The position numbers and the translations under genes are program-made. Positions 5,958 through 28,332 of a stretch of DNA of 32,000 bases are shown here, in pieces. The stretch is taken from NCBI GenBank assembly GCA_025839675.1, contig CP104013.1:2580001-2612000 (forward strand), written 5' to 3'. The DNA comes from Candidatus Lokiarchaeum ossiferum (GTDB taxonomy: Archaea > Asgardarchaeota > Lokiarchaeia > Sigyniarchaeales > Promethearchaeaceae). Under the pieces are notes generated by a model. The model did no database searches, was not told the origin of the DNA, and saw only the letters and a list, made by a program, of their open reading frames with translations. The stretch's first letter is position 1. Each line of letters begins with the position of its first letter.

Positions 5958-7229
5958 TTAAAACATCTGATCCTTCAAAGTTTTAACCGCTTTTTGCTGG
6001 ATTAATTTTTTTTCAGCTTTCTTTTGCTCAGTAATATCTTCCCCAGAACTTAAAATGCCTCTGAATTCTCCTTGTTCGTTGATAATAGGTGCGTTATGCC
6101 AGAAAATCAACTTTTTCTTACCACGTTTATCGAGAATATAATTTTTATTGAATTCATTTTTCCCTTGGCGCACTTTTTCAAGTTCCTTTCTAATAGACGA
6201 ACGATCTTTTTCTTGAATAAAATTTTCGCACCAATCCAACCCTACTACTTCAGTTTCATCATAACCAAGAAGTTGAATCCCTTTACGATTGATTTTTGAT
6301 AATTTCAAATTTTCATCTAGAACAATAAGCATAACTCCAGCAATATCAAAATACATTTGGGCGATGGCTTTTTCCGAAGCAAGTTTCTGTTCAGTTTTTT
6401 TTAAAGAGGTGATATCCATCCCAACAGAGAGAATCTCGACAATTTTTCCATTTTTATCGTAAATGGGTTTATTTGTCCAAGCGACCCACTTTGATGTATT
6501 ATCTTTCAGAATACTTCTCACTTCCCGGAATTCAAAATTCTCAGGGTTTTCCAAGAAGAGTTTCAATCGATCAGCACTAAAAATACCATCTTCCTCCGTT
6601 CTAGGTAGGATGGTTCCAACAATACTCTTGCCCAATATCTCGTCAGATGCATATCCAAAAAATTTCTCAGCAAAGGGGTTTAAAAAGGTCAAGTTTCCAT
6701 TAAGATCAATTTTAATGATAGAATTATTTGCAGTAAGGATCTCATTTGCATTATTTAAAGCGACTTCTGTTCGCAAACGTTCTTCTTCAAATTCCGTGAC
6801 ATATTTTAAGGTTTTTAATCGTTCTTCCCATTTCGAACAAAACTGCGAAGCAAATTCGGTGATATCTATTCCATTACTCATTTTAATTTCATCGATGAAA
6901 TCATTTCGTATGCGCATCAATAAATCGGTTCTAATTTTCCCAATATCCTTATTCAGCTTAAAAATTAAAGAATATTTATCAAAATTGCCTCGAACTTGAG
7001 GATTTTGAATTAAAAAGTTGGTTGCTTGATAAAAAGAATTTCTTTCTTCAAAAAAGAGATTTTTTTTATTTAAACTTAGGGCATCAATAATAATTTTTGA
7101 GGATATATGGTTGCAAGTGTCTTCGCAAAAAGTACAACCTTCACTATCTTGTACATTCAAACAGATTGGACCTTTGTAGTCATCAAACTTACCTAGGGTT
7201 ATTAATATATTAGAGTGATCAAATTGCAA
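5958..7229 (-). CDS. Cytoplasmic sensor protein: novel N-terminal alpha/beta domain, coiled coil and two PAS domains, no output domain
   Basis: 423-aa ORF with a TTG start at 7229 (first ATG-encoded Met is near residue 105). PAS signatures: LTFLNPFAEKFFGYASDEILGKSIVGTILP and KLSKINRKGIQLLGYDETEVVGLDWCENFI. Each ends in the usual (S/G)xxxDIT(E/S) strand (SVGMDITSLKK, SSGEDITEQKK). No kinase, GGDEF or HTH follows. Confidence 0.8.
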   Translation of the reverse strand: MQFDHSNILITLGKFDDYKGPICLNVQDSEGCTFCEDTCNHISSKIIIDALSLNKKNLFFEERNSFYQATNFLIQNPQVRGNFDKYSLIFKLNKDIGKIRTDLLMRIRNDFIDEIKMSNGIDITEFASQFCSKWEERLKTLKYVTEFEEERLRTEVALNNANEILTANNSIIKIDLNGNLTFLNPFAEKFFGYASDEILGKSIVGTILPRTEEDGIFSADRLKLFLENPENFEFREVRSILKDNTSKWVAWTNKPIYDKNGKIVEILSVGMDITSLKKTEQKLASEKAIAQMYFDIAGVMLIVLDENLKLSKINRKGIQLLGYDETEVVGLDWCENFIQEKDRSSIRKELEKVRQGKNEFNKNYILDKRGKKKLIFWHNAPIINEQGEFRGILSSGEDITEQKKAEKKLIQQKAVKTLKDQMF

Positions 7230-7380
7230 TATAACATCATTTAACTCGAAAAAAATAAAAATTTATTCAAATTCTTAGATAATCTAGCAAATAATTATGA
7301 TTAAGACAAAGTTTTGAATAAAGTCGGGAAATTATCGTTCCATTGTTAGAAAATGTGATGATTTCGAGAATTTAAAGGTC

Positions 7381-8235
7381 TCAGTTTTCTTCTACAGTAA
7401 TAGATGTTTTTTTTACTTTTCCAAATCCATAAAAGATGAAAACTGGAGAGATTATCCAAAATAAATGCCCTAGGATATAATAAAAAAGGGTAGGTAAAAC
7501 TAAAATCATCGGGGAGATAAGAGTTATCACACCTAAAATTACCCAATATATATGACCAATCCCAAGGAAAATGATTCCCCACATGAAAAAGGTAATTCGC
7601 TTTTTAAAATCTTTGGAAGGATCTTCTATTGCGATGTCTTTTAGGGTTAGATAAAGCATTAATGCACTGATTAAATAAATAATTACATTTAAAGCAATGG
7701 AAAACCCCGCAAATCCATTGAAGATCCCACTTACATCGATGCCAATGGATGAGATCAAGATTTGAATGATGTCTCCTGCGGAGATTATGATTGTTATTGC
7801 CCCCATTAAAATAATAACAATTGCATTATTCGTAAAAACTGCTTTTACTCTTTCTTCATCATATCGAAGTGCGAATGCTGCAATTAGGAAATTCCAATTC
7901 ATTACAGTGCTAGCCCCAAAAGCAATGTCTCTAAGAATATTCACCCAAAATAGAGATTGATAATTGAAATCATATCCTTGATAAATGCCCATTGGAGTTG
8001 TTTCATCCATGGATAACCCTGCACATGTATAAATAACCATATCCAGTGTAATATAAAGGACCCATGCAAACATCCCTATTAATAGAGATTTGTGAAATTG
8101 TGATCTATCTTTCCAAGCCGTTTGTTTATTTTTCTTGTTAATTAAGTAAATATTCATAATAAATAGAGCGGCTTCAATGGATTTAGGAATAATTAAGGTA
8201 AGTTCTAAATTTGAAATTAAGGGCACAATTATCAC
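7381..8235 (-). CDS. Polytopic integral membrane protein (about 8 TM), unknown function
   Basis: 284-aa ORF from GTG at 8235, with an alternative ATG at 8157 (MNIYLINKKN..). Hydrophobic helices run throughout. The gene sits 44 bp downstream of the GTPase gene on the same strand. Confidence 0.65.
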   Translation of the reverse strand: MIIVPLISNLELTLIIPKSIEAALFIMNIYLINKKNKQTAWKDRSQFHKSLLIGMFAWVLYITLDMVIYTCAGLSMDETTPMGIYQGYDFNYQSLFWVNILRDIAFGASTVMNWNFLIAAFALRYDEERVKAVFTNNAIVIILMGAITIIISAGDIIQILISSIGIDVSGIFNGFAGFSIALNVIIYLISALMLYLTLKDIAIEDPSKDFKKRITFFMWGIIFLGIGHIYWVILGVITLISPMILVLPTLFYYILGHLFWIISPVFIFYGFGKVKKTSITVEEN

Positions 8236-8279
8236 ATGATTATTTTATTGAAAAAACTTTAGCTTACAGCATTACACTT

Positions 8280-9209
8280 TTATGCTTGATACGTTTGCAT
8301 CATTAATGATTTTCTAAAAACAGTATAAATCGTTGATCTATAGATAGTATTTTTAAATCCCACAGGCATTAGCTGTTTGATGGGGCCAATAATTTTCTCA
8401 TTGATGGTTTGCTGGGAAAATTTCCCTTCCTTATCGATATTAGGATCAAATTTGTGAAGAAATATATCCATTTCAAAGGTTTGTGAAAATTGGTCCAAAC
8501 TTCCAATGATCTCGCTCAAATAAGAAATAGATTCAGCATATCGTTTATCATTTTGGACATCGATGACATAGATTATTTTATCAAAGCCTCTGATAACAGA
8601 AATAGGATCTTTTTTAAATTCTTCACGAAAGACTACTTGACCGCCATATTCAAAGTATATTGAATCAGGTTGGATTTTTGTCTCCAAATTCATATCAGAG
8701 AGAATTTCGGACATATGTTTCTTCCCATTTGTTGCTTTGAGATTTTGGTTCATATAAGCCATCAAATTTTTGTTTCCTAAGAAGCTAAGGAGAATTGAAG
8801 TTTTTCCACTACTATCAAGTCCCATGAGTAGTACTTTTTTTCCTTTCATGCCTTTTTTTGCAGAAACAACATCAGATGTAGAAAGATAAGAACTTACGGA
8901 CTCTAACATATCAAAAATCTGTCGATCTCGGATTTTATAAAATTTTTGCGTACCTTCTTTTCGATATGTTACCAAGTTGGAGTTAGATAAACTTTTTAAT
9001 TGCTGCGATGTAGTGGAATGGCTTTTTCCAGTAATTTTTTCAATATCACTGACAGTCAGCGGACCAGATCGAAGAGATTGAAGAATTGCCATTCTAGTAT
9101 CATCGGCAATTGCCTTCAAGACATTCATATATGTGAATTTATTTTCCATTTTAGTACTCTCAACGGGTAATTTTTCTTTCTTATATATGTTTAAAAGAAG
9201 CTCAAACAT
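8280..9209 (-). CDS. ArsR-family winged-HTH fused to a Rag/Gtr1-like small GTPase domain
   Basis: 309-aa ORF with ATG at 9209 (alternative ATG at 9149). The wHTH is ADDTRMAILQSLRSGPLTVSDIEKITGKSHSTTSQQLKSLSNSNLV. GTPase motifs: G1 GLDSSGKT (nt 8799-8822), G3-like FEYGGQ, and G4 in the Rag-type HKxD form (FLHKFD). KKVLLMG, IIYVIDVQN and YRSTIY resemble RagA as I recall it. Confidence 0.75.
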   Translation of the reverse strand: MFELLLNIYKKEKLPVESTKMENKFTYMNVLKAIADDTRMAILQSLRSGPLTVSDIEKITGKSHSTTSQQLKSLSNSNLVTYRKEGTQKFYKIRDRQIFDMLESVSSYLSTSDVVSAKKGMKGKKVLLMGLDSSGKTSILLSFLGNKNLMAYMNQNLKATNGKKHMSEILSDMNLETKIQPDSIYFEYGGQVVFREEFKKDPISVIRGFDKIIYVIDVQNDKRYAESISYLSEIIGSLDQFSQTFEMDIFLHKFDPNIDKEGKFSQQTINEKIIGPIKQLMPVGFKNTIYRSTIYTVFRKSLMMQTYQA

Positions 9210-9406
9210 TTAAACACTTTGACATTTAGGTATTGATCCAGTTAAAATCACAAAAAAACTAATTTAATTTGATGATCTAAAAGTCACTTAGTTTGAATGT
9301 CCAAATATCCAAACATTTAAATATATATAATTATTAAATAATATTATCCCGAAATTGTTATCACATCAATTCTTCAAAAATGGAAGAAAGGAAAGGGTAA
9401 AAAAAA
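9210..9406. promoter_or_regulatory. Divergent promoter/operator region between the wHTH-GTPase gene and the ABC operon
   Basis: 197-bp AT-rich spacer between divergent starts. TATA-like TTTAAATATATATAA at 9316-9330. Purine-rich RBS (GGAAAGGG) a few nt before ATG 9407. No transcription start data. Confidence 0.4.
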
Positions 9407-10204
9407 ATGACTGAAAATCAAAATAAAACCGTTGCAAGTGAAAACGCATATGCAATAGAAGTTGAAAACTTAAAAAAGCACTTCACTAGTAAATCCGAAG
9501 CTAACATTGTGAAAGCTGTTGACGATATATCCTTCAAAGTTAAGGAAGGCGAATTCTTTGGACTTTTAGGGCCAAATGGCGCTGGGAAAACCACCACCAT
9601 AAAAATGTTGACAGGTCTTAGCACCCCATCTGAAGGAACCGCACGCATTGGAGGATATGATCTTAAATCACAAATGATGAAGATTAAAGAATCTATTAGT
9701 GTATGCCCTCAGGAACCAGCCTTGTTTAAATTTCTCTCGGGAATTGAGAACATTGAATTTTTTGCAAATCTACACTTGATGTCAAAAACCGAAATCAAAG
9801 CTCAAGCAGAGAAATTCTTAAATCTCTTGGGACTATACGATGTCCGTAAAAGAAAAGTAAAAGGTTATAGTGGTGGAATGTTGCGACAGCTTAGTTTAAT
9901 TGTATCATTGATCCATGATCCAGAAACAATATTTTTAGATGAACCAACTGTAGGTATGGATCCACGTGCTCGACGTAAAGTGTGGGATTTTCTTGGAACT
10001 ATCAAAAAACAAAAGAAAACAATCATCTTAACCACCCATTATATAGAGGAAGCCGAAGCCCTTTGTGATAGAGTGGCAATCATTGATTATGGAAAGTTAG
10101 TTGCCTTAGGAGCACCCCAAGATCTTATTGCCCAATATGAAGTTAAAAATTTAGAAGAAGTCTTTATGAAAATAACTGGCAGAAGCATTTTGGAGGGGTT
10201 ATAA
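9407..10204 (+). CDS. ABC transporter ATP-binding protein (ABC-2 / DrrA-type exporter ATPase)
   Basis: Walker A GPNGAGKTT, Q-loop region, signature YSGGMLRQLS, Walker B IFLDEPTVGMD, H-loop TTHY. 265 aa. Confidence 0.95.
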   Translation: MTENQNKTVASENAYAIEVENLKKHFTSKSEANIVKAVDDISFKVKEGEFFGLLGPNGAGKTTTIKMLTGLSTPSEGTARIGGYDLKSQMMKIKESISVCPQEPALFKFLSGIENIEFFANLHLMSKTEIKAQAEKFLNLLGLYDVRKRKVKGYSGGMLRQLSLIVSLIHDPETIFLDEPTVGMDPRARRKVWDFLGTIKKQKKTIILTTHYIEEAEALCDRVAIIDYGKLVALGAPQDLIAQYEVKNLEEVFMKITGRSILEGL

Positions 10205-10206
10205 AA

Positions 10207-10962
10207 ATGGAATTTCAAAGAATACGAGCCATTGTTAAAATGGAAATTAAACGTCAGCTACGAGATCCCCTAACTCTATTCATAACCACCCTAATGGTAC
10301 CAGCACTGATCGTAGTAATGGGTTTATCGTTAGATTCCGTGTATTCATGGTCTCCAGACTATAGTGTATTTGAAATAATGTTTCCTGGATTTCTGGCTTA
10401 TGGATGTTTGCTGACAATTTTTGATGTTGCAGGATCCGTGGCAACGGAAAAGGAATTAGGAGTTCAAATTCGGCTGATAACTAGTCCTCTGTCATCTTCT
10501 GAATATATATTTGCTCAATTAATCGCTTATACAATTAAACCTTTGGTTCAAGCAATTATAGGAATTCCACTTGGATATTTAGTTGGATACCGCCCTGATA
10601 TTTCCGTAATGGGATACATCTTAATAGTAGTATTTCTGATAATTCTAACCTTTTGCTCAGTCGGATTTGGACTTATTACAGCAAGTTTAGTAAAGAATGC
10701 CGGAGCAGCACAAGGTTTAGCTTTCGCATTCATAGTCCCCCAACAAATCTTTGGATCTTTTATCCCAGCCGCTTTCTTCGGATTAGAAAAATTTGCATGG
10801 GTCCTTCCCAGTTTTTATGCGACAGATGGAATTGGACTCATCTTTGCAGGAACAAATCTCTTAGATTCCCAAATTTGGCTTCGAATGTTATTGCTTTGCA
10901 CCATAAGTTTAGTAATTTATGTAATCGGAACTTTTCTTTTTGAGAAAAATAAAAAATCATAA
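10207..10962 (+). CDS. ABC-2 type transporter permease
   Basis: Starts 2 nt after the ATPase stop, with a GGAGGGG RBS upstream. 251 aa, six hydrophobic helices, typical ABC-2 length and layout. Paralogous to the C-terminal half of the next ORF. Confidence 0.85.
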   Translation: MEFQRIRAIVKMEIKRQLRDPLTLFITTLMVPALIVVMGLSLDSVYSWSPDYSVFEIMFPGFLAYGCLLTIFDVAGSVATEKELGVQIRLITSPLSSSEYIFAQLIAYTIKPLVQAIIGIPLGYLVGYRPDISVMGYILIVVFLIILTFCSVGFGLITASLVKNAGAAQGLAFAFIVPQQIFGSFIPAAFFGLEKFAWVLPSFYATDGIGLIFAGTNLLDSQIWLRMLLLCTISLVIYVIGTFLFEKNKKS

Positions 10963-10983: not shown

Positions 10984-12921
10984 ATGCAGAAAATAACACA
11001 CAAAAGCAAATTGAACTCAAATCGTGAAGTATGGGTAGATTATCTACGGATATTTGCCGTTTTTTTAGTTATTCCTTACCATATAATAATCTCCTATGTT
11101 GAGAGTGTGTTTGGTGAAGGGACACACTTCACAATTTGGAACGAATATTTCCCAAAAGGAGCTCACCAGATTTGGAATTTCTTCAATCCTTGGCATATGC
11201 AATTACTTTTTGTTCTGGCGGGTTTTAGTTTGGTCCTTTCATTAAAAAAACGTTCATTCAAGATTTTTACTCAAGAACGTCTTATCCGAATTGGAATCCC
11301 AATCATTTTTGGAATTATCTTGTTAAACGCCATAATGAGTTGGTTTAGCACCATGTTTTATTACAATTTACACCCAGAAGTTAATCCAATATACCCAAAC
11401 CTTCCAGATTTTTGGACATTTTTTGTCTATTGGTGGTGGATAGGAAAATCTTTCAATTCAGGTCATTTATGGTTCTTAGTTGTATTGCTTGTGTTAAGCC
11501 TCGGGATGGGATTGATCATTTCACTTATACAAAAAAAGAAAGCCGATTCCACTCACAATCAGAATAGGTCAACAAAATTTCTTAAATTTCTAACACATCC
11601 AGCCACAATGTTATTATGGGGTCTAATAGCAACACCTTTAAGCTATATTAAACCAGCCTACACAAATCCAACTCTATCTGCCATATTTGGAGTCTTTCAA
11701 TACAATCAAGTTCTATTCTTTCTTTTTGGGATCATTCTTGCATGTAATCGACAAAATATAGACAGAATCAATCAACATTGGAAATGGACACTACCTCTTG
11801 GATTCAGTATGTTAATCACTTGGATTATATTTCAAAAAGATTATCTTCTGGTCTTAAAAAATGTTGGAGCATGGTTCTTTGTATATGGACTGATTTGTTT
11901 AGCAAGTGTGAAACTCACAAAATCCTCAAAAACCCTCCAATATCTATCAAAAGCCAGTATGCCAGTTTACATTCTTCATTTACCTTTGGAAATTATTGTT
12001 GGCTACTTTATAATTCAACTTCCAATTTATCCGATATTGGAAATCTTTCTACTTGTGATCATCAATTTAATCTTATGTTTTCTTTTATATGATGGAATAC
12101 ATAGATTAAATCGAGTAATTCCAGGGATAGGGTTAGTAGTTGGTATTAAAGAGAAGAATATGATGCAAAAAATTCGCCGAATGTTAACAATTGTGAAATT
12201 AGAAATGAAAAGACTATTTCGGGAACCAATGACAGTTATCTTTACATTATTCCTTGTTCCAATTCTAATCATAATTCTTGGGCTAGCCATGGGTTCAAAT
12301 TACGGTTGGCATCCGGATTACTCAATATTTGATATAATGATGCCAGGATTATTAGCCTATAATGCATTACTTTCCACATATGATGTGGCCGCATCTGTTG
12401 CAAGCGAAAAAGAGTTAGGAATTCAAATAAGGATTAACACAACACCACTAACATCTGCAGAATATATTGGGAGTCATTTAATATCCTATTCCATTAAGCC
12501 AATTATTCAATTGTTGCTAAGTTTACTCACAGCCTATGCTGTTGGATATCGCCCCGTAGCTTCAGTGGTTGGTTATATCGTTGTAATTGCATTCATGATT
12601 TTTTTAACCTTATGTTCTGTCGGTTTTGGGCTGATTACAGCAAATTTCGCAAAAAGTTCCAGTTCCGCGGGAAGTTTAGCTTTTGCGTTTATCGTACCAC
12701 AGCAAATTTTCGCATCCATAATCCCTCCTGCGTTTTTGGGAATGGAAAAATTGGCCATGTTCATGCCAAGCTTTTATGCAACTGAAGGTATGGGTCTTCT
12801 TTTAGCAGGTGCATCTTTAACAACACCAGATATTTGGGCCAAAATGGGGATATTGGGGATTTTCACATTAGTATTTGTGATTATTGGAACAATTCTTTAT
12901 GAAAAAGGACGAAAGGAGTAG
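10984..12921 (+). CDS. Fusion protein: acyltransferase-3 (OafA/AT3) membrane domain plus a second ABC-2 permease domain
   Basis: Single 645-aa frame with no stop. The N-terminal ~390 aa carry the AT3 TM1 signature (REVWVDYLRIFAVFLVIPYHI: R, D, R, H) and about 10 TM helices. Residues 393-645 (from the ATG pair at 12160) align along their full length with the 10207-10962 permease (e.g. GFGLITA, LAFAFIVPQQIF, PSFYAT). Confidence 0.8.
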   Translation: MQKITHKSKLNSNREVWVDYLRIFAVFLVIPYHIIISYVESVFGEGTHFTIWNEYFPKGAHQIWNFFNPWHMQLLFVLAGFSLVLSLKKRSFKIFTQERLIRIGIPIIFGIILLNAIMSWFSTMFYYNLHPEVNPIYPNLPDFWTFFVYWWWIGKSFNSGHLWFLVVLLVLSLGMGLIISLIQKKKADSTHNQNRSTKFLKFLTHPATMLLWGLIATPLSYIKPAYTNPTLSAIFGVFQYNQVLFFLFGIILACNRQNIDRINQHWKWTLPLGFSMLITWIIFQKDYLLVLKNVGAWFFVYGLICLASVKLTKSSKTLQYLSKASMPVYILHLPLEIIVGYFIIQLPIYPILEIFLLVIINLILCFLLYDGIHRLNRVIPGIGLVVGIKEKNMMQKIRRMLTIVKLEMKRLFREPMTVIFTLFLVPILIIILGLAMGSNYGWHPDYSIFDIMMPGLLAYNALLSTYDVAASVASEKELGIQIRINTTPLTSAEYIGSHLISYSIKPIIQLLLSLLTAYAVGYRPVASVVGYIVVIAFMIFLTLCSVGFGLITANFAKSSSSAGSLAFAFIVPQQIFASIIPPAFLGMEKLAMFMPSFYATEGMGLLLAGASLTTPDIWAKMGILGIFTLVFVIIGTILYEKGRKE

Positions 12922-15071: not shown

Positions 15072-16304
15072 ATGGATACTGAATACGATCAAACTGCAAC
15101 TCTCGAAGAATTACAAGTGGAATCATCGCAAAGGAAGAGATATTTTCAAGTGGATGCCATGAAGGCAATCATGATTGGATTGGTAATTATGGATCATACC
15201 TTTACTCACAGTTTTTTACATCAATTTGGATCTCCTTTTTGGGAACGAATTTCAATCCCAATATTGATGATCATTATGGGTTTTAATTTGGGAAACTCAT
15301 CGAAGGGAATAAATCACATGAAATTAAAAGATTATTATACCCGATCTTATTTTGAGAAGAAATTGAAGCGATATTTCATCCCCTACCTCATTCTTTACTT
15401 CATTCACGGTATAATGAGGTTAATTGTAACATTAGGGGAGATTCAAATAAATTCCCCTGCAACATATGATTCAGCGGTCTTTCGGTACCTAGGATTCACG
15501 CTCTTTTACGGTCCAGGCTTGTGGTTCATCCCGGTTCTCTTTGGAACAATACTAGTGTTTCCAATCTTACATTTCTACTTTAAAAAAATGCCATCAACAA
15601 CTTTTTTTGCAACTTTTTGTATAGAATTTTTGACCCAATTTATTGTATTAATGATCCTTAGTACCAATCAAGGTAATATTCTAGGAGTATTTTACTTTCT
15701 TTACAGTGTTTTCTGTTTGTTCAGTGCTATTGGAATGGGATTATGGCTTTCAATTGATCATAATATGTCATCCAAACATAACGTAGTAATTTGGATCCTT
15801 TTTCCAATCAGTTTAGGATACATGATTATCGCTATGATATTCCCAGGGCTTTTATTTTTCCCAATTGGTGATTATCAAATGTTTTATTTCCCCTATTCTG
15901 CAGTAATATTTATGTGTTGCATGAAACTTATCCCCGAAAATCCCAAAGGTACAGTTAGTGAGTTTATTAGGAAAGTGAGTAAATCCACATATCATATTTT
16001 ATTAGCCCAGATATTTTATTTCTCAATTGTTTTTCAATTCTTTTTGATAATGACCGATGGAGATGCTTCCACCCTTGATATTTTTGATGCAGCACCTTTG
16101 AACTATTTATGGTTCTTTCCACTAAATTTGGTTATTACATTTGGAATTGGATTATTTTGGAACCATCTTGAAGAGAAGTTTTATAAAAAGATGCCTGAAA
16201 AGAGAGGATATCAAAAAATATATGCTTTTATGCTAACATTGGCCGTGATCGCATTTGCAGCATGGATAATTGGACAAATTTTATTTTTCTTTGTGGTATT
16301 TTAA
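15072..16304 (+). CDS. Acyltransferase-3 family integral membrane protein
   Basis: 410-aa ORF with a GAGGA RBS. The AT3 TM1 signature is RKRYFQVDAMKAIMIGLVIMDHTF (R, D, H), followed by about 10 TM helices. Confidence 0.7.
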   Translation: MDTEYDQTATLEELQVESSQRKRYFQVDAMKAIMIGLVIMDHTFTHSFLHQFGSPFWERISIPILMIIMGFNLGNSSKGINHMKLKDYYTRSYFEKKLKRYFIPYLILYFIHGIMRLIVTLGEIQINSPATYDSAVFRYLGFTLFYGPGLWFIPVLFGTILVFPILHFYFKKMPSTTFFATFCIEFLTQFIVLMILSTNQGNILGVFYFLYSVFCLFSAIGMGLWLSIDHNMSSKHNVVIWILFPISLGYMIIAMIFPGLLFFPIGDYQMFYFPYSAVIFMCCMKLIPENPKGTVSEFIRKVSKSTYHILLAQIFYFSIVFQFFLIMTDGDASTLDIFDAAPLNYLWFFPLNLVITFGIGLFWNHLEEKFYKKMPEKRGYQKIYAFMLTLAVIAFAAWIIGQILFFFVVF

Positions 16305-21907: not shown

Positions 21908-24229
21908 TTACAGAAATTCAGACAAAACATGCTTTATGGAGTCAATGGTGTAAGGTTTATTCAAAACTTGTGAAAAACCATATTTTTTATAATTAGCAAG
22001 AATGGGATCATTCGAATAACCGCTTGAAACTATCGCGATAACATCAGGGTCAATTTTTTTAAGTTCGGATATTGTTTCTTTTCCTCCAATTCCTCCTGGA
22101 ATTGTGAGATCCATAATTACCAAACGATATTTTTCATTATTCTTTATTGAGTTTGCATATTTTCTTAACAATTCTTCACCATCATAAGCAATATCTACGG
22201 ACAAACCAAATTTTGTAAGTATTTTGGATAATATCTTCAAGATCATGGGATCATCATCCATAATAATGACTTTACCTTGAAATTCCTGCTTTAAAGCAGA
22301 TTTCTTTAAATTGTTTCTTATTTCCTTTTCACTTATCGGGAGATAAATATGGAATGTCGTACCTATAGCCATTTGAGATTCAAATGTAATATAACCCCCA
22401 TGTCTTTTAATAATAGAATAACATGTTGCTAAACCTAAACCATTTCCCTTCTTTTTTGTAGTGAAATATGGTTCAAAAATATGTTGCTGAGTATCTAACG
22501 AAATACCTTCACCTTGATCTTTAATTGAAATATGGATATAATTCCCATCCGCTAATGGAACATCAACAGAATTCACCAATTCGATAACTTCAAGAGAGAT
22601 TAAAATAGTTCCCCCATCTATCATAGCTTGATTTGCATTAATTAGGAGATTATTAAAAACTTGATTCATTTGGCCAGCATCAACTTCGACTACAGGAATT
22701 TCCGAGTTCTTTTCCACTACGCATTTTGATTTTGATCCCCGCATTACAAATGAGAGCGATTCTTCAATAATCGAAAGAATATCGTGTGTTTTTTTCAGAG
22801 GTGCACCACCTTTTGAAAATGTTAGTAATTGTTTTGTCAGATCTGTTGCTCTTAAAGTTGCTTTTTCTATATCCCGCAATGAGTCTAACATTTCATTAGA
22901 AACATCATCTTCTAATTGCATGTAATTAACATTACCAAGTATTCCGACTAAAATATTATTGAAATCATGAGCAATTCCACCAGCCAGAAGAGCTATTGAT
23001 TCGATTTTTTGAGAGCGTAATTGTTCAGAATCTCGACGTTTTTGTTCAGAGATATCCCGAATTATTGCTTGAATGAATTTTTCACCATCCAATGAAATAA
23101 TACTAGCAGTTACATTAGATTCGAAGGTCTCACCGTTTTTTCTCTGCATTATTATTTCATAAAGACCACGGGAACCGCTTAGAAATTCATTCGTCAAGTT
23201 CTTTTGTAATATCTTCTTATCTGTAGGATGTAAATCATCAGTAACGAAACTTAATAATTCTTCTCGAGTATAACCAAATAAATTGAGAGCACTTTGGTTC
23301 GCCTCAATAATTTTCCCAGAAATTTCATGCAATATTATAGCATCACGAGAATTATTGAACAAATCATTATATTTTCGCTGGTTTTCTTGAATTATCTGAA
23401 GAGATTTTTTATACGCCGTGATATCTTGATGAATAACTACAATATTTTGCATCAAATTTTGATCATTCTTTATGGGAAAGACTATTGTCCTGAGCCAATG
23501 TATCTCTTTATTATTATTATTAAACATTCCCGGTTCTAATTTGAAATCAGGTATCTGAGTATAATTTCCATTAAAAGCTTCTTGAATATAAGGAAGCAAA
23601 GCTAACCTATCAAAAAGAGGTTCTTTCAGTAAATTAAATCTTCCAATAGCATTCTCTGGATCAATCCCCCAAAAAACTTGAAAATTCTTGTTAACTATTT
23701 GTAAATATCCTTTTGTGTCATAAATTTGAATGTCAAAGGGGGCTTGATCGATCAAATTTCGAAACCTTTCTTCGCTTTCAATCAAAGAAAATTCAACCTG
23801 CTTTCGTTCAGTAATATCGATAAGAGATCCAATCATGTAACAAGAATCATTTTGATCTATTATAAAAGCAAAACGATCTAAAAACCACCGATATCCTCCA
23901 TCTTTATGTCTTAATCGGATTTCAAGCTCACTGGAACGAGAAAAATTATTAAGATTTGTGCGAGTAAACTCAATAATGGACTCCATTTGATCCAAATCAT
24001 CAGGGTGAAAAATAGTTTTGGAAAAAGAGCGCCCGTCTTCTAAAAATTTATTTAAAGGCCACCCTAAGATTTCTTCAACAGAATTGCTTATATACACATA
24101 GGATGAACTGGTTAAATCAATTTTATATGAAATATCTTTTGAATACCTCAGAATTTCATATAGATTTTTTTGGTTTTCAAGCAATTTGTCAACAGACTGA
24201 TCTGGTAAATTTTGGTCTTGAAATGGCAT
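21908..24229 (-). CDS. Hybrid sensor histidine kinase: multiple PAS domains, HisKA, HATPase_c and a C-terminal receiver
   Basis: 773 aa. At least three PAS modules (..IDITERK, ..HQDITAYK, ..IRDISEQK endings). H-box GGIAHDFNNIL, N-box NLLINANQAM, G1 DQGEGIS, G2 GNGLGLATC. Receiver with MDDDPMI and the phospho-acceptor context LVIMDLTIPGG. Confidence 0.92.
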   Translation of the reverse strand: MPFQDQNLPDQSVDKLLENQKNLYEILRYSKDISYKIDLTSSSYVYISNSVEEILGWPLNKFLEDGRSFSKTIFHPDDLDQMESIIEFTRTNLNNFSRSSELEIRLRHKDGGYRWFLDRFAFIIDQNDSCYMIGSLIDITERKQVEFSLIESEERFRNLIDQAPFDIQIYDTKGYLQIVNKNFQVFWGIDPENAIGRFNLLKEPLFDRLALLPYIQEAFNGNYTQIPDFKLEPGMFNNNNKEIHWLRTIVFPIKNDQNLMQNIVVIHQDITAYKKSLQIIQENQRKYNDLFNNSRDAIILHEISGKIIEANQSALNLFGYTREELLSFVTDDLHPTDKKILQKNLTNEFLSGSRGLYEIIMQRKNGETFESNVTASIISLDGEKFIQAIIRDISEQKRRDSEQLRSQKIESIALLAGGIAHDFNNILVGILGNVNYMQLEDDVSNEMLDSLRDIEKATLRATDLTKQLLTFSKGGAPLKKTHDILSIIEESLSFVMRGSKSKCVVEKNSEIPVVEVDAGQMNQVFNNLLINANQAMIDGGTILISLEVIELVNSVDVPLADGNYIHISIKDQGEGISLDTQQHIFEPYFTTKKKGNGLGLATCYSIIKRHGGYITFESQMAIGTTFHIYLPISEKEIRNNLKKSALKQEFQGKVIIMDDDPMILKILSKILTKFGLSVDIAYDGEELLRKYANSIKNNEKYRLVIMDLTIPGGIGGKETISELKKIDPDVIAIVSSGYSNDPILANYKKYGFSQVLNKPYTIDSIKHVLSEFL

Positions 24230-25831: not shown

Positions 25832-27259
25832 TTATTGGCCTGTACTTGATAACAAAATAGACACTACGAGCCCTAAAAGAAGCAAAACTAATAGAATAAA
25901 ATAATATTTTGGTTTCCATTTTTTGATATACTTCCCATCGAGTGCAAATCCCTTGAATTCGCCCGGAAACATATTAAATGTCCCTAAAACGCAATTTAAG
26001 GATCCCCCTTGTAAGAAAATCATCTTCAAAGTAGATAAGGATCCGGGGAGTATGAGTGAAATTAGAATAAATACTAATCCAAGGATGAAATTTGAAGCGG
26101 GACCCGCAATTTTAATCGCCCCCATTTTATCTTTATCATCGTCAGGATCAACCCCAACAGATACGGCAGCTCCGGGTAAAGCGATTGGAATTCCAATTAT
26201 TGCAGAACGAAGGGTTGTTTTCATCCCTACAGTTGTTAAACAAAAACGACTTTGGAAATGAAAATGTTTCCCTGTCTGTAGATGAGCGGTTTCATGCACA
26301 ATAAAAGACAGAGAAAAGATTAAAGCAATAGGGAGAGGTTCAAAAAATATTGCAGATATGCCGATAAAGTATTGATATTGGATATAATAATATAAAGCAG
26401 TTAATCCCATAACATTAATATAAGAGTGATACACCATAATAAAAAGTAAACTAAAGGCAACAAGAATATGCCATGTTTCACTCTTTTCTAATTTATAGAC
26501 CATTCCCAAATCTAATCCAGAATCTGGACGAAAGGCATTTGGAGGAATAGGCATTTTTCTTTTGACTAAAATGAAACTATTGGAAGTAAAGGAAGGATCC
26601 TCTGGATCCATAAAAATTGCATTCCGTCTTCGATAAGCAGGAGCCATAGATGGATCATGAACTGGGGGAACGGTGGGTGCCTGGGTTGGATCAAAATAAA
26701 CTCCACCAGATGACGATTCTTCGCTAGGTGCCACCGTTGGAGATTGAGTAGGATCAGTGAAGGAATGATGCGAGCGTGAAGGAGGTGCCACAGTAGAAGC
26801 AATTGTGGGATCTTTGAATGGTTCTTCATTTAATTTTTCTACTTGACTTGAACCACTTCCATTTGGAGTGTTAATTGTAGTATCATGAAAAATAAGATCC
26901 ATTTGAATCAACGTACCGTTTTCTTCGACAGGTACAATAATTTTATCACCATTTTTCAAGAGTTGTGGGGTTGTTTGTTTTAAATTCAAGTTTCCCAGGT
27001 AAGTTCCATTCGTACTATTTAGATCCTCGATGTAATAACGATCTCCTCTTAAAGAAATAATAAATTGTTGTTTAACATAACTCCCGGTTTTTGGATCTTT
27101 TCGAACACTCGAAATAGCGGAAAATAGTGCGGGATCAACGCTAAGTGTTGCAGATTTTTTGATATCCTTCTTTCCTATGTGAAAAACGTGTTGATTTTGA
27201 GGGAGGAGAATTTTACCACCAATTTTGGGAATTTCCAGATAAATTTCGCGAACAACCAT
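25832..27259 (-). CDS. FHA domain fused through a Pro/Ser/Thr-rich linker to an M50 site-2 protease membrane domain
   Basis: 475 aa. FHA core is ISLRGDRYYIEDLNSTNGTYLGN...LKNGDKIIVP. The membrane half carries an intramembrane HETAH (nt 26282-26296), AGPASNF, and the second S2P motif NMFPGEFKGFALDG (N..P....LDG). Confidence 0.8.
   Translation of the reverse strand: MVVREIYLEIPKIGGKILLPQNQHVFHIGKKDIKKSATLSVDPALFSAISSVRKDPKTGSYVKQQFIISLRGDRYYIEDLNSTNGTYLGNLNLKQTTPQLLKNGDKIIVPVEENGTLIQMDLIFHDTTINTPNGSGSSQVEKLNEEPFKDPTIASTVAPPSRSHHSFTDPTQSPTVAPSEESSSGGVYFDPTQAPTVPPVHDPSMAPAYRRRNAIFMDPEDPSFTSNSFILVKRKMPIPPNAFRPDSGLDLGMVYKLEKSETWHILVAFSLLFIMVYHSYINVMGLTALYYYIQYQYFIGISAIFFEPLPIALIFSLSFIVHETAHLQTGKHFHFQSRFCLTTVGMKTTLRSAIIGIPIALPGAAVSVGVDPDDDKDKMGAIKIAGPASNFILGLVFILISLILPGSLSTLKMIFLQGGSLNCVLGTFNMFPGEFKGFALDGKYIKKWKPKYYFILLVLLLLGLVVSILLSSTGQ
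26660..26815 (-). repeat. Coding tandem repeat in the FHA-S2P linker (three DPTxxxTVxP units)
   Basis: The units are DPTIASTVAPP, DPTQSPTVAPS and DPTQAPTVPPV, spaced 18-21 residues apart (protein residues about 149-200). Confidence 0.7.
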
Positions 27260-27324: not shown

Positions 27325-28332
27325 TCAATAAATGCCCGTAACCACGCGGCGTCCAAATTTATTAAACATTAATTTCCCACCTAAAATACCCATTAGCTGT
27401 CCAACATAAGAAGCAGTTGAGATTCCGGTGAAAAATATACCTAAAATTGCAAATACAGAGGAATAAGCAATTAAAAAATAAAGAATATATTTCGCTTTGA
27501 GTTTAACGGGAATGAAATAGAGATACATTCGCATTTCTCGATTTAAACCAACAAGATGCAATAGGAAAGTCATCATGCCAAGAATAGCGCACCATTGAGT
27601 AGAAATCAAGAATAAATCCAACAATCTCCCGATAGAAAGTATCATTCCTAAAGATTGGACAAGCACTATTGATAAAACACCCAATCCACCGCAAGCTAAA
27701 TAAATGGTAGCCATGAATTTTGATCCAAATTGCATTTCAATGGATTTACCAATAGAATAGAGCATTAATTCAGCAAAAAGTAATCCAAAAATATCGCGAG
27801 GGGCAAACATAGATGTTATTAAAGTTGGAATTGCTAAAATACTTGAAAATAGATTTAATGTATTGAATAGAATATATGGTTCCAATATTGGAAAGAGCGT
27901 TAGGACGAAGAAAAACGCTGATAAGCCCATAAACGTATAGGTGACTTGCATCTTATTTGTCCGTGAAATAAATGGACTATAATTTTCACCAGTGGGACGA
28001 CTGCCTCTAGTAGGAGGAGGGGGCATAGCTTGACGTTCTTGAGCCCGGATATAATCGCGCATTTCCCGTTCCATTTGTTTTTCGGTATCTTCAGGAGTGG
28101 TATAGTTCGGAGTATTAAAATTATTTTGAGCGGGATTATAAGATTCTTCTGGCACTGAAGTAGTTGATGAAGCAACTGTCGTCCGAGCACGAGGGTTATC
28201 ATTCATAGAAAACGTACAATCATGATTTTCAGGTAATCGATGTAGTTTACAAAAAGTTCCGCCACAATATCGACATTTAAAAGGGAGATAAGTCAACGTT
28301 TCGTTGCAATCGGGAGTATCGCATTTAACCAT
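27325..28332 (-). CDS. AN1-type zinc finger fused to a rhomboid-fold six-TM domain that lacks recognisable catalytic residues
   Basis: 335 aa with a GAGGA RBS. The AN1 pattern is C-x4-C-x10-C-x2-C-x4-C-x2-H-x5-H-x-C ([28 protein letters not shown]). The membrane part matches the rhomboid TM2-3 core (LITSMF...[28 protein letters not shown]). The HxxxN, GxSG and TM6 His positions read GLLFAE, TQWC and SYVGQ instead. Confidence 0.7.

Follow-up and report, generated by a model that had tools for sequence, protein, structure and literature searches.

Do three neighbouring genes of an Asgard archaeon encode a single signal-transduction module and, if so, what would that module do? The question is raised by a locus within 32,000 nucleotides of the genome of Candidatus Lokiarchaeum ossiferum (assembly GCA_025839675.1, contig CP104013.1, positions 2,580,001 to 2,612,000). 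We refer to this whole stretch as the window, and positions given below are those of the window unless another locus is named. The minus-strand genes NEF87_002158-002160 encode, in the order in which they are read, a fusion of a winged helix-turn-helix (wHTH) DNA-binding domain to a Rag/Gtr-like GTPase (G), a polytopic membrane protein (M) and a protein in which a small N-terminal domain is followed by two PAS domains (P). An original prediction, made from the sequence alone, had proposed that the trio is a compact prokaryotic analogue of the system that controls Rag GTPases in eukaryotes. We found that the three genes stay together through local rearrangements, that the N-terminal domain of P is confidently modelled as a longin, and that longins lie beside GTPases of this kind, or are fused to them, at other loci.

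We favor the possibility that the trio is a single module for signal transduction, with a DNA-binding small GTPase at its centre, and judge the whole chain of mechanism to be evenly poised between right and wrong. According to this scenario the GTP/GDP state of G would set its binding to DNA at a conserved box in the promoter region of its own gene and at another that precedes a divergent ABC-2 exporter. P would be the cognate GTPase-activating protein (GAP) for G, acting through an arginine (R80) and a pocket formed around a GP motif, and its PAS domains would make this activity ligand- or redox-dependent. M would be a sensor or anchor in the membrane, by which G or P is recruited or activated.

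Linkage of the three genes

The open reading frames (ORFs) of G (8280-9209, 309 aa), M (NEF87_002159; 7381-8235, 284 aa) and P (5958-7229, 423 aa, TTG start) were all confirmed on the minus strand, and the gaps of 44 bp (G/M) and 151 bp (M/P) on which the original prediction had remarked were reproduced exactly. It had also called G a fusion of a wHTH with a Rag-like GTPase and P a dual PAS protein without enzymatic output, and both descriptions held. The start of G (NEF87_002160) is, however, probably misplaced. The annotated ATG at 9209 falls inside a conserved non-coding block that is described below, and the true start is probably at M21 (9149), which gives a protein of 289 aa (8280-9149), because the orthologs begin at the M21 position and one of them (locus L001) has no open frame ahead of it. 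The first 20 annotated residues (9150-9209) would then be an annotation artefact.

G, M and P adjoin one another in nine copies, namely the window and eight of eight fetched orthologous loci from the genera Lokiarchaeum and Promethearchaeum, which answers in the affirmative the check on synteny that had been suggested. The genes are colinear on one strand in loci L001, L002, L008, L009 and L010 (G 68-78% identical, gaps 25-191 bp), and in L003 (G 69% identical) and L007 (M 57% identical) M and P are inverted as a pair, so that they diverge from G, yet still adjoin it. The outer flanking genes vary from locus to locus. As the linkage recurs in all eight orthologous loci despite these differing flanks, it goes beyond chance; the G-M-P core has been retained while its surroundings were shuffled.

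One of these copies has an interrupted G. In L007 (1606-2482) a frameshift breaks the G ortholog into a 158-aa wHTH ORF and a 135-aa GTPase ORF, either through an assembly error or because the copy is decaying, and M and P are intact next to it. Rag/Gtr GTPases are obligate heterodimers of two Rag paralogs. A paralog of G with 44% identity (NEF87_000796) lies elsewhere in the same genome; no second GTPase gene was found within the window.

The GTPase and the longin domain

The wHTH of G (residues 36-82 of the 309-aa ORF; 8964-9104, minus strand) matched Pfam HTH_5 (E 1.9e-12) and NCBIfam NF033788 HTH_metalloreg, of the ArsR/SmtB type, at 73.4 bits against a cutoff of 55. Its recognition helix is HSTTSQQLK, of which S65, T67 and K72 are invariant in the family alignment. 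Metalloregulators of the ArsR/SmtB type sense metal through Cys or His/Asp/Glu sites. We found no such ligands in G, where residues 21-115 contain no Cys and a single His, and the usual allosteric input has therefore apparently been replaced by the GTPase. ArsR-type wHTH proteins are usually homodimers, and the wHTH of G may supply the dimer that a roadblock domain supplies in Rags. Its presence, from which the original prediction had drawn no consequence, makes it likely that the output of G is transcriptional rather than membrane recruitment.

The GTPase domain (residues 125-299; 8313-8837, minus strand) scored far better against Pfam Gtr1_RagA (E 9.8e-18) than against Arf (2.3e-7) or Ras (0.034). 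All 18 of the PDB sequences that G matched at E<=1e-3 are of the Rag/Gtr type (RagA, RagC, RagD, Gtr1 and the unnamed GTP-binding proteins 8zla and 8yl2), with no Arf, Ras or Rab among them. Twelve sequences of the fusion family share an invariant P-loop (G130-x4-GKT), T160, E187-x-GGQ191, in which Gln191 occupies the catalytic glutamine position, and H252-K-F-D255. HKxD in place of NKxD at the G4 motif is a feature of RagA and RagC, and G has it (H252-K253-F-D255). The P-loop, GLDSSGKTS, resembles those of Arf and Sar, in keeping with the comment of Tran et al. that Asgard GTPases of this class, although Rag-like, are close to Arf (PMC10933270).

P consists of an N-terminal domain (residues 1-140; 6810-7229), a first PAS domain (residues 166-273; 6411-6734; PAS, E 5e-23) and a second (residues 297-405; 6015-6341; PAS_9, E 5e-20), all on the minus strand, and no output domain was matched in Pfam or NCBIfam. 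The N-terminal domain is the most conserved part of the protein in the ortholog alignment and, by both that alignment and the structural model, extends over about 140 residues, not the roughly 105 first proposed. Exhaustively searched with HMMER, a set of 1.84 billion representative proteins yielded only 17 relatives of it, in varied architectures (with PAS domains, with transmembrane (TM) segments or with a helical tail). A scan of a genome collection returned a single locus, so that the family is rare among species representatives. As a side observation, the C-terminal tail of P (KAVKTLKDQMF, residues 413-423; 5961-5993) lies outside any domain and is near-invariant in the orthologs; it may be a docking motif.

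The fold of the N-terminal domain is predicted with confidence to be that of a longin. The AlphaFold2 (AF2) model, built on a 15-sequence alignment, reached a pLDDT (predicted local distance difference test) of 85.7 and a pTM (predicted template-modelling score) of 0.80, and runs beta-beta-alpha-beta-beta-beta-alpha-alpha (strands 9-16 and 20-23, helix 45-52, strands 57-62, 65-75 and 83-93, helices 101-117 and 123-140). In a Foldseek search of 350,542 PDB chains the top 13 matches were FLCN (8dhb_J, 6ulg_L), FNIP2, NPRL2/NPRL3, the yeast SEAC complex and the crystal structure of a Lokiarchaeal longin (8yqg), with query-normalised TM-scores that reach 0.58. These are the kinds of Rag and Arf GAP longin to which the original prediction had pointed. 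The domain had been described as longin- or roadblock-like, and only the first half of that description survives: the model opens with two strands and has two helices at its end, as longins do and roadblocks (alpha-beta-beta-alpha-beta-beta-beta) do not, and Robl_LC7 was not matched by P in Pfam at E<=1.

What makes the longin of P look like a GAP is the position of two motifs. According to PMC12290439, GAP-type longins are recognised by a GP motif at the start of strand beta2, which GEF (guanine-nucleotide exchange factor) and scaffold longins lack, and by an arginine finger. In P the segment F15-D16-x3-G20-P21 places a GP pair at residue 20, where beta2 begins; among the 15 members of the P family P21 is invariant and G20 is present in at least 90%. 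The pair R80-G81, found in 13 of the 15, sits in the 76-82 loop ahead of beta5 (83-93). We compared these positions with those in human NPRL2 and FLCN, using N-terminal sequences 100% identical to PDB chains 6ces_N and 6ulg_L, respectively. NPRL2 has G20-P21 and R78 (KKYSRNALLFNL), P has G20-P21 and R80 (PQVRGNFDKYSLIFKL) and FLCN has G15-P16 and R164 (SLARGFQRWYSIITIM); in presence and position, which is what was compared, R80 is colinear with the other two arginines. The GP motif of C9orf72, at G38-P39, likewise corresponds to G20-P21 of P. Arg164 of FLCN is a catalytic finger visible in 8DHB (PMC9473554), a structure that is also the top fold match of the P domain, and the R78A substitution in NPRL2 destroys the GAP activity of GATOR1 (PMC11363303).

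It is nonetheless conceivable that the longin of P is not a GAP but promotes exchange as a GEF, serves as a scaffold or provides a platform for dimerisation, or that it holds G in one nucleotide state, in which case the trio would still be one unit, with a different sign of regulation. Most longins are GEF platforms or scaffolds, as in TRAPP, Mon1-Ccz1 and DENN (PMC12290439; PMC10933270), and the Rags are kept in one nucleotide state by the lysosomal folliculin complex in its inactive form. Moreover, two members of the P family (P0153 and P0157) have no arginine in the R80 column. Eukaryotic GAP longins act as two-longin heterodimers, whereas the module contains no second longin gene that could complete a pocket like those of FLCN-FNIP, NPRL2-NPRL3 and C9orf72-SMCR8; the Lokiarchaeal longin 8yqg is a homodimer, and homodimerisation is possible for the longin of P as well. 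However, the GP motif that PMC12290439 reports as specific to GAP longins is kept in the P family, R80 is placed like the catalytic arginines of NPRL2 and FLCN, and the best fold matches are the catalytic FLCN and NPRL2, not TRAPP or Mon1. We consider a role other than that of a GAP unlikely, and infer GAP activity and contact between P and G.

Wider occurrence and likely output

Longins accompany GTPases of this kind well beyond the orthologous loci. In one protein (P0152) a longin-family domain is fused directly to an Arf/Rag-type GTPase (Arf E 2.4e-28). A paralogous module at locus L011 combines a longin (P0142) that is 39% identical to that of P and has no PAS domain, a 268-aa polytopic membrane protein, a wHTH-GTPase fusion of the G2 type that is 44% identical to G, and a divergent ABC (ATP-binding cassette) ATPase with an ABC-2 permease. 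At L004 and L057, GTPases of the G2 type lie at most two genes from longin-family genes.

The surroundings of P0152 are themselves rich in GTPases (L013 531-6136; L014). Its neighbour, in convergent orientation, is a Rag-like GTPase of 399 aa that carries additional regions at both termini. Three genes upstream there is a small GTPase of 169 aa, and the downstream genes include ones for GAF and PAS proteins.

When metagenomes were scanned with the G alignment, 245 relatives came up, and 80 loci were retained from these for the counts that follow. Partners were counted in loci with at least 3 kb of flank, a longin being scored within 6 kb, by neighbour clustering, Pfam and hidden Markov model counts. 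Where wHTH and GTPase are fused (n=7), a GAP-type longin of the window type was present in all seven and M in six. GTPase-only loci (n=16) had a GAP-type longin in 10 cases and a small 145-aa longin in 11. In about 48 metagenome loci (30-36% identity) wHTH and GTPase are separate, adjacent genes; among the 28 such loci counted for partners, 18 carry a longin joined to a receiver domain and 22 a MASE3-PAS-histidine kinase, the latter consisting of MASE3 (E 1e-81), three PAS domains, HisKA and HATPase. The receiver protein ends in a domain of about 170 aa with the motifs WDDxxGP and ERxGExQYM. When the profile of this receiver-longin was run against 177,635 PDB sequences, human C9orf72 was the sole match (E 0.17), with the whole longin domain covered and its WDNILGP aligned; the same domain aligns colinearly, though weakly, with the window-type longin family (P = 0.02). 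Examples of this widespread four-gene arrangement, among loci L019-L095, are L074 1236-4130 and 277-993, and L056 3907-4821. Because the split loci carry a wHTH, a GTPase, a MASE3-PAS kinase and a receiver-longin, the Lokiarchaeal trio is a repartitioned variant of a wider module made up of wHTH, GTPase, membrane/PAS sensor and GAP-type longin.

Some further features of the split loci were recorded. The wHTH and GTPase genes share a reading frame in 45 of 48 pairs (among them L026 1494-2399 and L021 4560-5471), with one to five mixed stops between them, and this could reflect a ranking bias of tblastn, shared ancestry or a trace of fusion or fission through gain or loss of stops. Stop-codon recoding was considered and rejected, as the stops are a mixture of TAA, TGA and TAG, often several together, and the GTPase has its own ATG. 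The flanks of these pairs (L019-L063) recurrently contain an Lrp/AsnC regulator (27 loci, mostly divergent), cysteinyl-tRNA synthetase (19), cysteine synthase (11) and serine acetyltransferase (10), which may be a matter of lineage synteny or of a link to cysteine metabolism. At L019 (6968-8877), upstream of the wHTH/GTPase pair, a 242-aa longin+V4R protein lies beside a 316-aa N-extended Ras/Rab-like GTPase and is another pairing of a GTPase with a regulator in one locus.

If G is a DNA-binding protein, its targets may lie close by. Alignment of eight regions upstream of G revealed two conserved blocks amid diverged DNA. The proximal block (TAAATGTC..TGTTTAAATGTTTGA; 9202-9228, minus strand), 53-80 nt upstream of the M21 start, is a candidate promoter/operator, and the distal block (ATATTTAAATGTTTGGATATTTGGACATTCAAAC; 9291-9324, minus strand), about 85-115 nt upstream of the start codon of a divergent ABC ATPase, is a candidate shared operator/promoter. 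An 11-mer, TTTAAATGTTT, occurs 12 times in the 370,760 nt of fetched loci, both strands included, and in all 12 cases it is upstream of a G ortholog and in the orientation of G. The blocks may be promoters, operators for the HSTTSQQLK recognition helix, or both. A conserved element of the split loci (L020-L034), AACGATATGCCGATATATAAATGTTACGAT, has repeated CGATAT boxes and lies about 100-130 nt upstream of the wHTH genes in 18-24 of 43 loci; it has a TAAATGTTnCGAT core in common with the distal block of the window type.

The divergent genes encode an ABC ATPase (9407-10204) and an ABC-2 permease (10207-10962) on the plus strand, together 9407-10962, a conserved transporter that the original prediction had overlooked. 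Such a pair is found near G in the window and in five of the eight orthologous loci, two other contigs ending too soon, and the pair of the paralogous L011 module is 35% identical to that of the window. We take the operon to be a likely regulatory target and a peripheral part of the module.

These same observations could be read more simply. G might be a local regulator of the ABC-2 exporter whose GTPase senses guanine-nucleotide or energy state, with M and P as a separate sensory pair that is either a stable neighbour or itself a target of G. The recurrence of the ABC pair near G and at L011 is consistent with this idea, as are the conserved boxes in the promoter region of G and the divergence of M-P from G in L003 and L007, which is a classic layout of regulator and target. 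What such a local regulator leaves unexplained is the presence of GAP-type longins beside this GTPase subfamily in four architectures, including direct fusion, and the fusion of a longin to a receiver domain in the split loci. We regard this possibility as quite unlikely, and return to the single module, in which control of DNA binding by the nucleotide state of G would connect the longin to the exporter.

Several neighbouring genes bear on what the exporter might do. Directly after the ABC-2 operon lies a 645-aa fusion of acyltransferase-3 with an ABC-2 permease (10984-12921) that is 54% identical to the adjacent permease, and a second acyltransferase-3 gene is found at 15072-16304. Together the two suggest an envelope or export function, such as export or O-acylation of an envelope polymer. 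Elsewhere the window contains a hybrid PAS-PAS-HisKA-HATPase-receiver kinase (21908-24229) and two unusual fusions, of FHA with an M50 site-2 protease (25832-27259) and of an AN1 zinc finger with a rhomboid (27325-28332).

M is the least defined member of the trio. It had been described as a protein of about eight TM segments and of no recognised family; no Pfam or NCBIfam family was matched, in agreement with the latter part, but the confident AF2 model (pLDDT 84.6, pTM 0.84) has seven. The long helices (9-35, 46-71, 93-124, 138-152, 174-200, 207-240 and 249-272) are accompanied by a small extracytoplasmic beta-hairpin (157-170), and the positive-inside rule predicts an N-out/C-in topology, with K/R-rich loops after TM1, TM3, TM5 and TM7. 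The top 50 Foldseek matches in the PDB were all G-protein-coupled receptors (GPCRs) or Frizzled, at E 1.3e-3 or worse, TM-scores of 0.39-0.57 and root-mean-square deviations of 6-8 Å, in a database in which GPCRs are over-represented. A resemblance to GPCRs has been noted before in prokaryotic sensor modules (PMC10760455). For these two reasons we read the model of M only as a seven-TM receptor-like bundle and as nothing more specific. No 7tm match was found for M in Pfam, and WLS-like_TM was matched by one of 17 members.

Other assignments of M were tried and rejected. It is not recognisably related to MASE3 (hhalign probability 0.2%) or to the membrane partner at L011 (0.05%), and DUF998, the UniRef label, was matched by no member; matches of some members to 'Kinocilin' look compositional. 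All 18 members of the family lie close to the Lokiarchaeal sequence. Distant homologs (35-37% identity) form a tandem pair that adjoins a gene for alanyl-tRNA synthetase and is not accompanied by G or P (L005 7001-8793; L006 898-2690), and the family is therefore not confined to the module. A complete circuit in which a GPCR-like M is receptor and exchange factor, the longin-PAS protein P a ligand-gated GAP and G the element that reads out on DNA through its wHTH strikes us as very unlikely in that full form; contacts of M with G or P would, in our preferred reading, serve sensing or anchoring.

The loop between beta2 and alpha1 of the P longin contains a cysteine cluster, C-x8-C-x2-C-x3-C (C23/C32/C35/C39; 7113-7163), that may bind Zn or an Fe-S cluster or respond to redox state; FLCN likewise has Cys- and His-rich segments near its GP motif. 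We nevertheless hold it to be highly improbable that the N-terminal domain serves mainly to sense metal or redox state in partnership with M, its likeness to longins being that of a common alpha/beta sandwich. In favour of such a role, PAS-bearing orthologs keep all four cysteines without exception and the family as a whole keeps three, residues 19-59 have a faint NCBIfam match to the ferredoxin-like NuoI (E 0.042), model confidence is lowest in the loop (pLDDT 74-77) and PAS folds do appear lower down the Foldseek list. Against it, one relative (P0149) lacks the whole loop and retains the GP and RG motifs, the order of strands and helices is that of a longin rather than of PAS or ferredoxin, the top 13 fold matches are longins, and a metal site and GAP function can coexist.

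The single-module reading has to be set against a number of results that weigh against it. With regard to the longin, (i) the only Pfam family matched by more than one of the 15 P-family sequences, Folliculin (PF11704), was sub-threshold in the three that matched (E 0.012-0.063, 13.5-15 bits against a cutoff of 23.3); (ii) hhalign of the P family against NPRL2 gave a probability of 0.2%, with the GP segment alone aligned; and (iii) a profile search of PDB sequences with the family of the P domain returned no longin. We base the putative FLCN/NPRL2-type assignment of P on fold, motif positions and context, not on sequence statistics, and the two members without an arginine and the missing second longin, discussed above, count on the same side. 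With regard to G, its sequence indicates a Rag-like G domain, yet G is not a canonical Rag, because no C-terminal roadblock domain was found, the protein stopping about 10 residues past the G domain; it also has ExGGQ where DxGGQ would be expected of a Rag. The membrane partners across paralogous modules are mutually non-homologous, and the role of M may therefore be accessory. Both DNA blocks contain TATA-like sequence, and within the window alone the motif count was at chance (2 matches against 1.55 expected), so that the weight of the boxes lies in their conservation across loci. Finally, the exact G-M-P arrangement is limited to one family, Promethearchaeaceae.

Relation to known systems

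There is precedent for several parts of the module. Liu et al. (10.1101/2020.10.19.343400) describe fusions of NPRL2-like longins to two-component signalling domains and of longins to Rag-family GTPases; they also state that most genes for eukaryotic signature proteins are not in conserved neighbourhoods. PMC12290439 describes Asgard longins of the FLCN/SMCR8 type with GP motif and arginine finger and asks explicitly whether their partner is ArfR or Rag/Gtr. P belongs to the same domain class and phylum as these GP-motif, NPRL2-like longins and keeps both GP and arginine, and its longin too is fused to prokaryotic sensory domains (PAS), as the longin of the split loci is to a receiver. Tran et al. 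2024 (PMC10933270) report Asgard Rag-like GTPases, close to Arf, that are fused to longin and/or roadblock domains. G shares with these a Rag-like G domain near Arf, and P0152 is a longin-GTPase fusion of the same sort; G differs in being fused to, or paired with, an ArsR-type wHTH, with the longin on a separate PAS protein.

The original prediction held that the module had not been described, and this stands in part: longin-signalling fusions and GP-motif Asgard longins are published, whereas we did not find the wHTH-GTPase fusion or gene pair, the neighbourhood of GAP longin and this GTPase subfamily, or the seven-TM partner in the searchable literature. The fusion or pair, the seven-TM partner and the G-M-P neighbourhood do not appear in the accessible text of PMC12290439 or of Liu et al., although overlap with Fig. 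5c of the latter is possible, and a wHTH or ArsR fusion has no occurrence in the text of PMC10933270. The four-gene split module was not found described as a neighbourhood in those parts of the literature that were accessible, and no papers for PDB entries 8yqg, 8zla and 8yl2 were found in the searchable literature.

If the module is as we propose, a Ras-superfamily GTPase fused to, or encoded immediately downstream of, an ArsR-type DNA-binding domain would be an unusual regulator with direct control of transcription. The neighbourhood and fusion evidence would name a candidate GTPase partner for the question left open in PMC12290439, and R80, G20-P21 and Q191 would offer themselves for point mutants. 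Ca. L. ossiferum is in culture and the proteins are small, so that the predictions are testable at the bench. Liu et al. (10.1101/2020.10.19.343400) proposed that growth in Asgard archaea is controlled by 'eukaryotic' regulators wired into two-component systems, and the wider module of wHTH, GTPase, sensor kinase and receiver-longin would give that proposal a concrete form. Should the full circuit and its split version both hold, the Rag-GATOR1/FLCN axis of nutrient sensing would predate eukaryotes; it would have begun as a transcription switch in two-component signalling and become lysosomal and TOR-coupled later.

Two further systems invite comparison. In MglA-MglB, too, a prokaryotic small GTPase of the Ras superfamily is encoded next to its regulator, a small alpha/beta protein from the roadblock/longin superfamily. 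P, however, has longin and not roadblock topology and carries a candidate arginine finger, whereas MglB is not known to supply one, and the output of the trio is probably transcription rather than cell polarity. With the ArsR/SmtB repressors G shares a wHTH above the family cutoff, a divergent transporter operon and boxes in the shared intergenic region. It differs from them in having no metal Cys/His ligands and a fused or adjacent GTPase as the putative allosteric input, and its box is a direct repeat (TGTTT-AAA-TGTTT) rather than the usual 12-2-12 inverted repeat.

The closest comparison is with the eukaryotic Rag system, and here the proposed analogy is partly borne out. In its favour are the conserved linkage and the GAP-type longin: like FLCN-FNIP, which acts on RagC/D, and the NPRL2-NPRL3-DEPDC5 complex GATOR1, which acts on RagA/B, P has a longin with GP at the start of beta2 and an arginine before beta5, and G, like the Rags, has a Rag/Gtr-like G domain with HKxD at G4. 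A polytopic membrane protein also belongs to the lysosomal Rag system, whose membrane components include SLC38A9 and the GPCR-like LYCHOS and GPR137B. On the other side, P is a single longin gene without the DENN or NPRL2 C-terminal domain, has two PAS domains instead, and resembles FLCN and NPRL2 below the level of sequence significance. The trio has no Ragulator, TOR kinase or lysosome, and G has a wHTH in place of the roadblock heterodimerisation domain of the Rags, so that its likely output is DNA binding and transcription where that of the eukaryotic system is the recruitment of a kinase.

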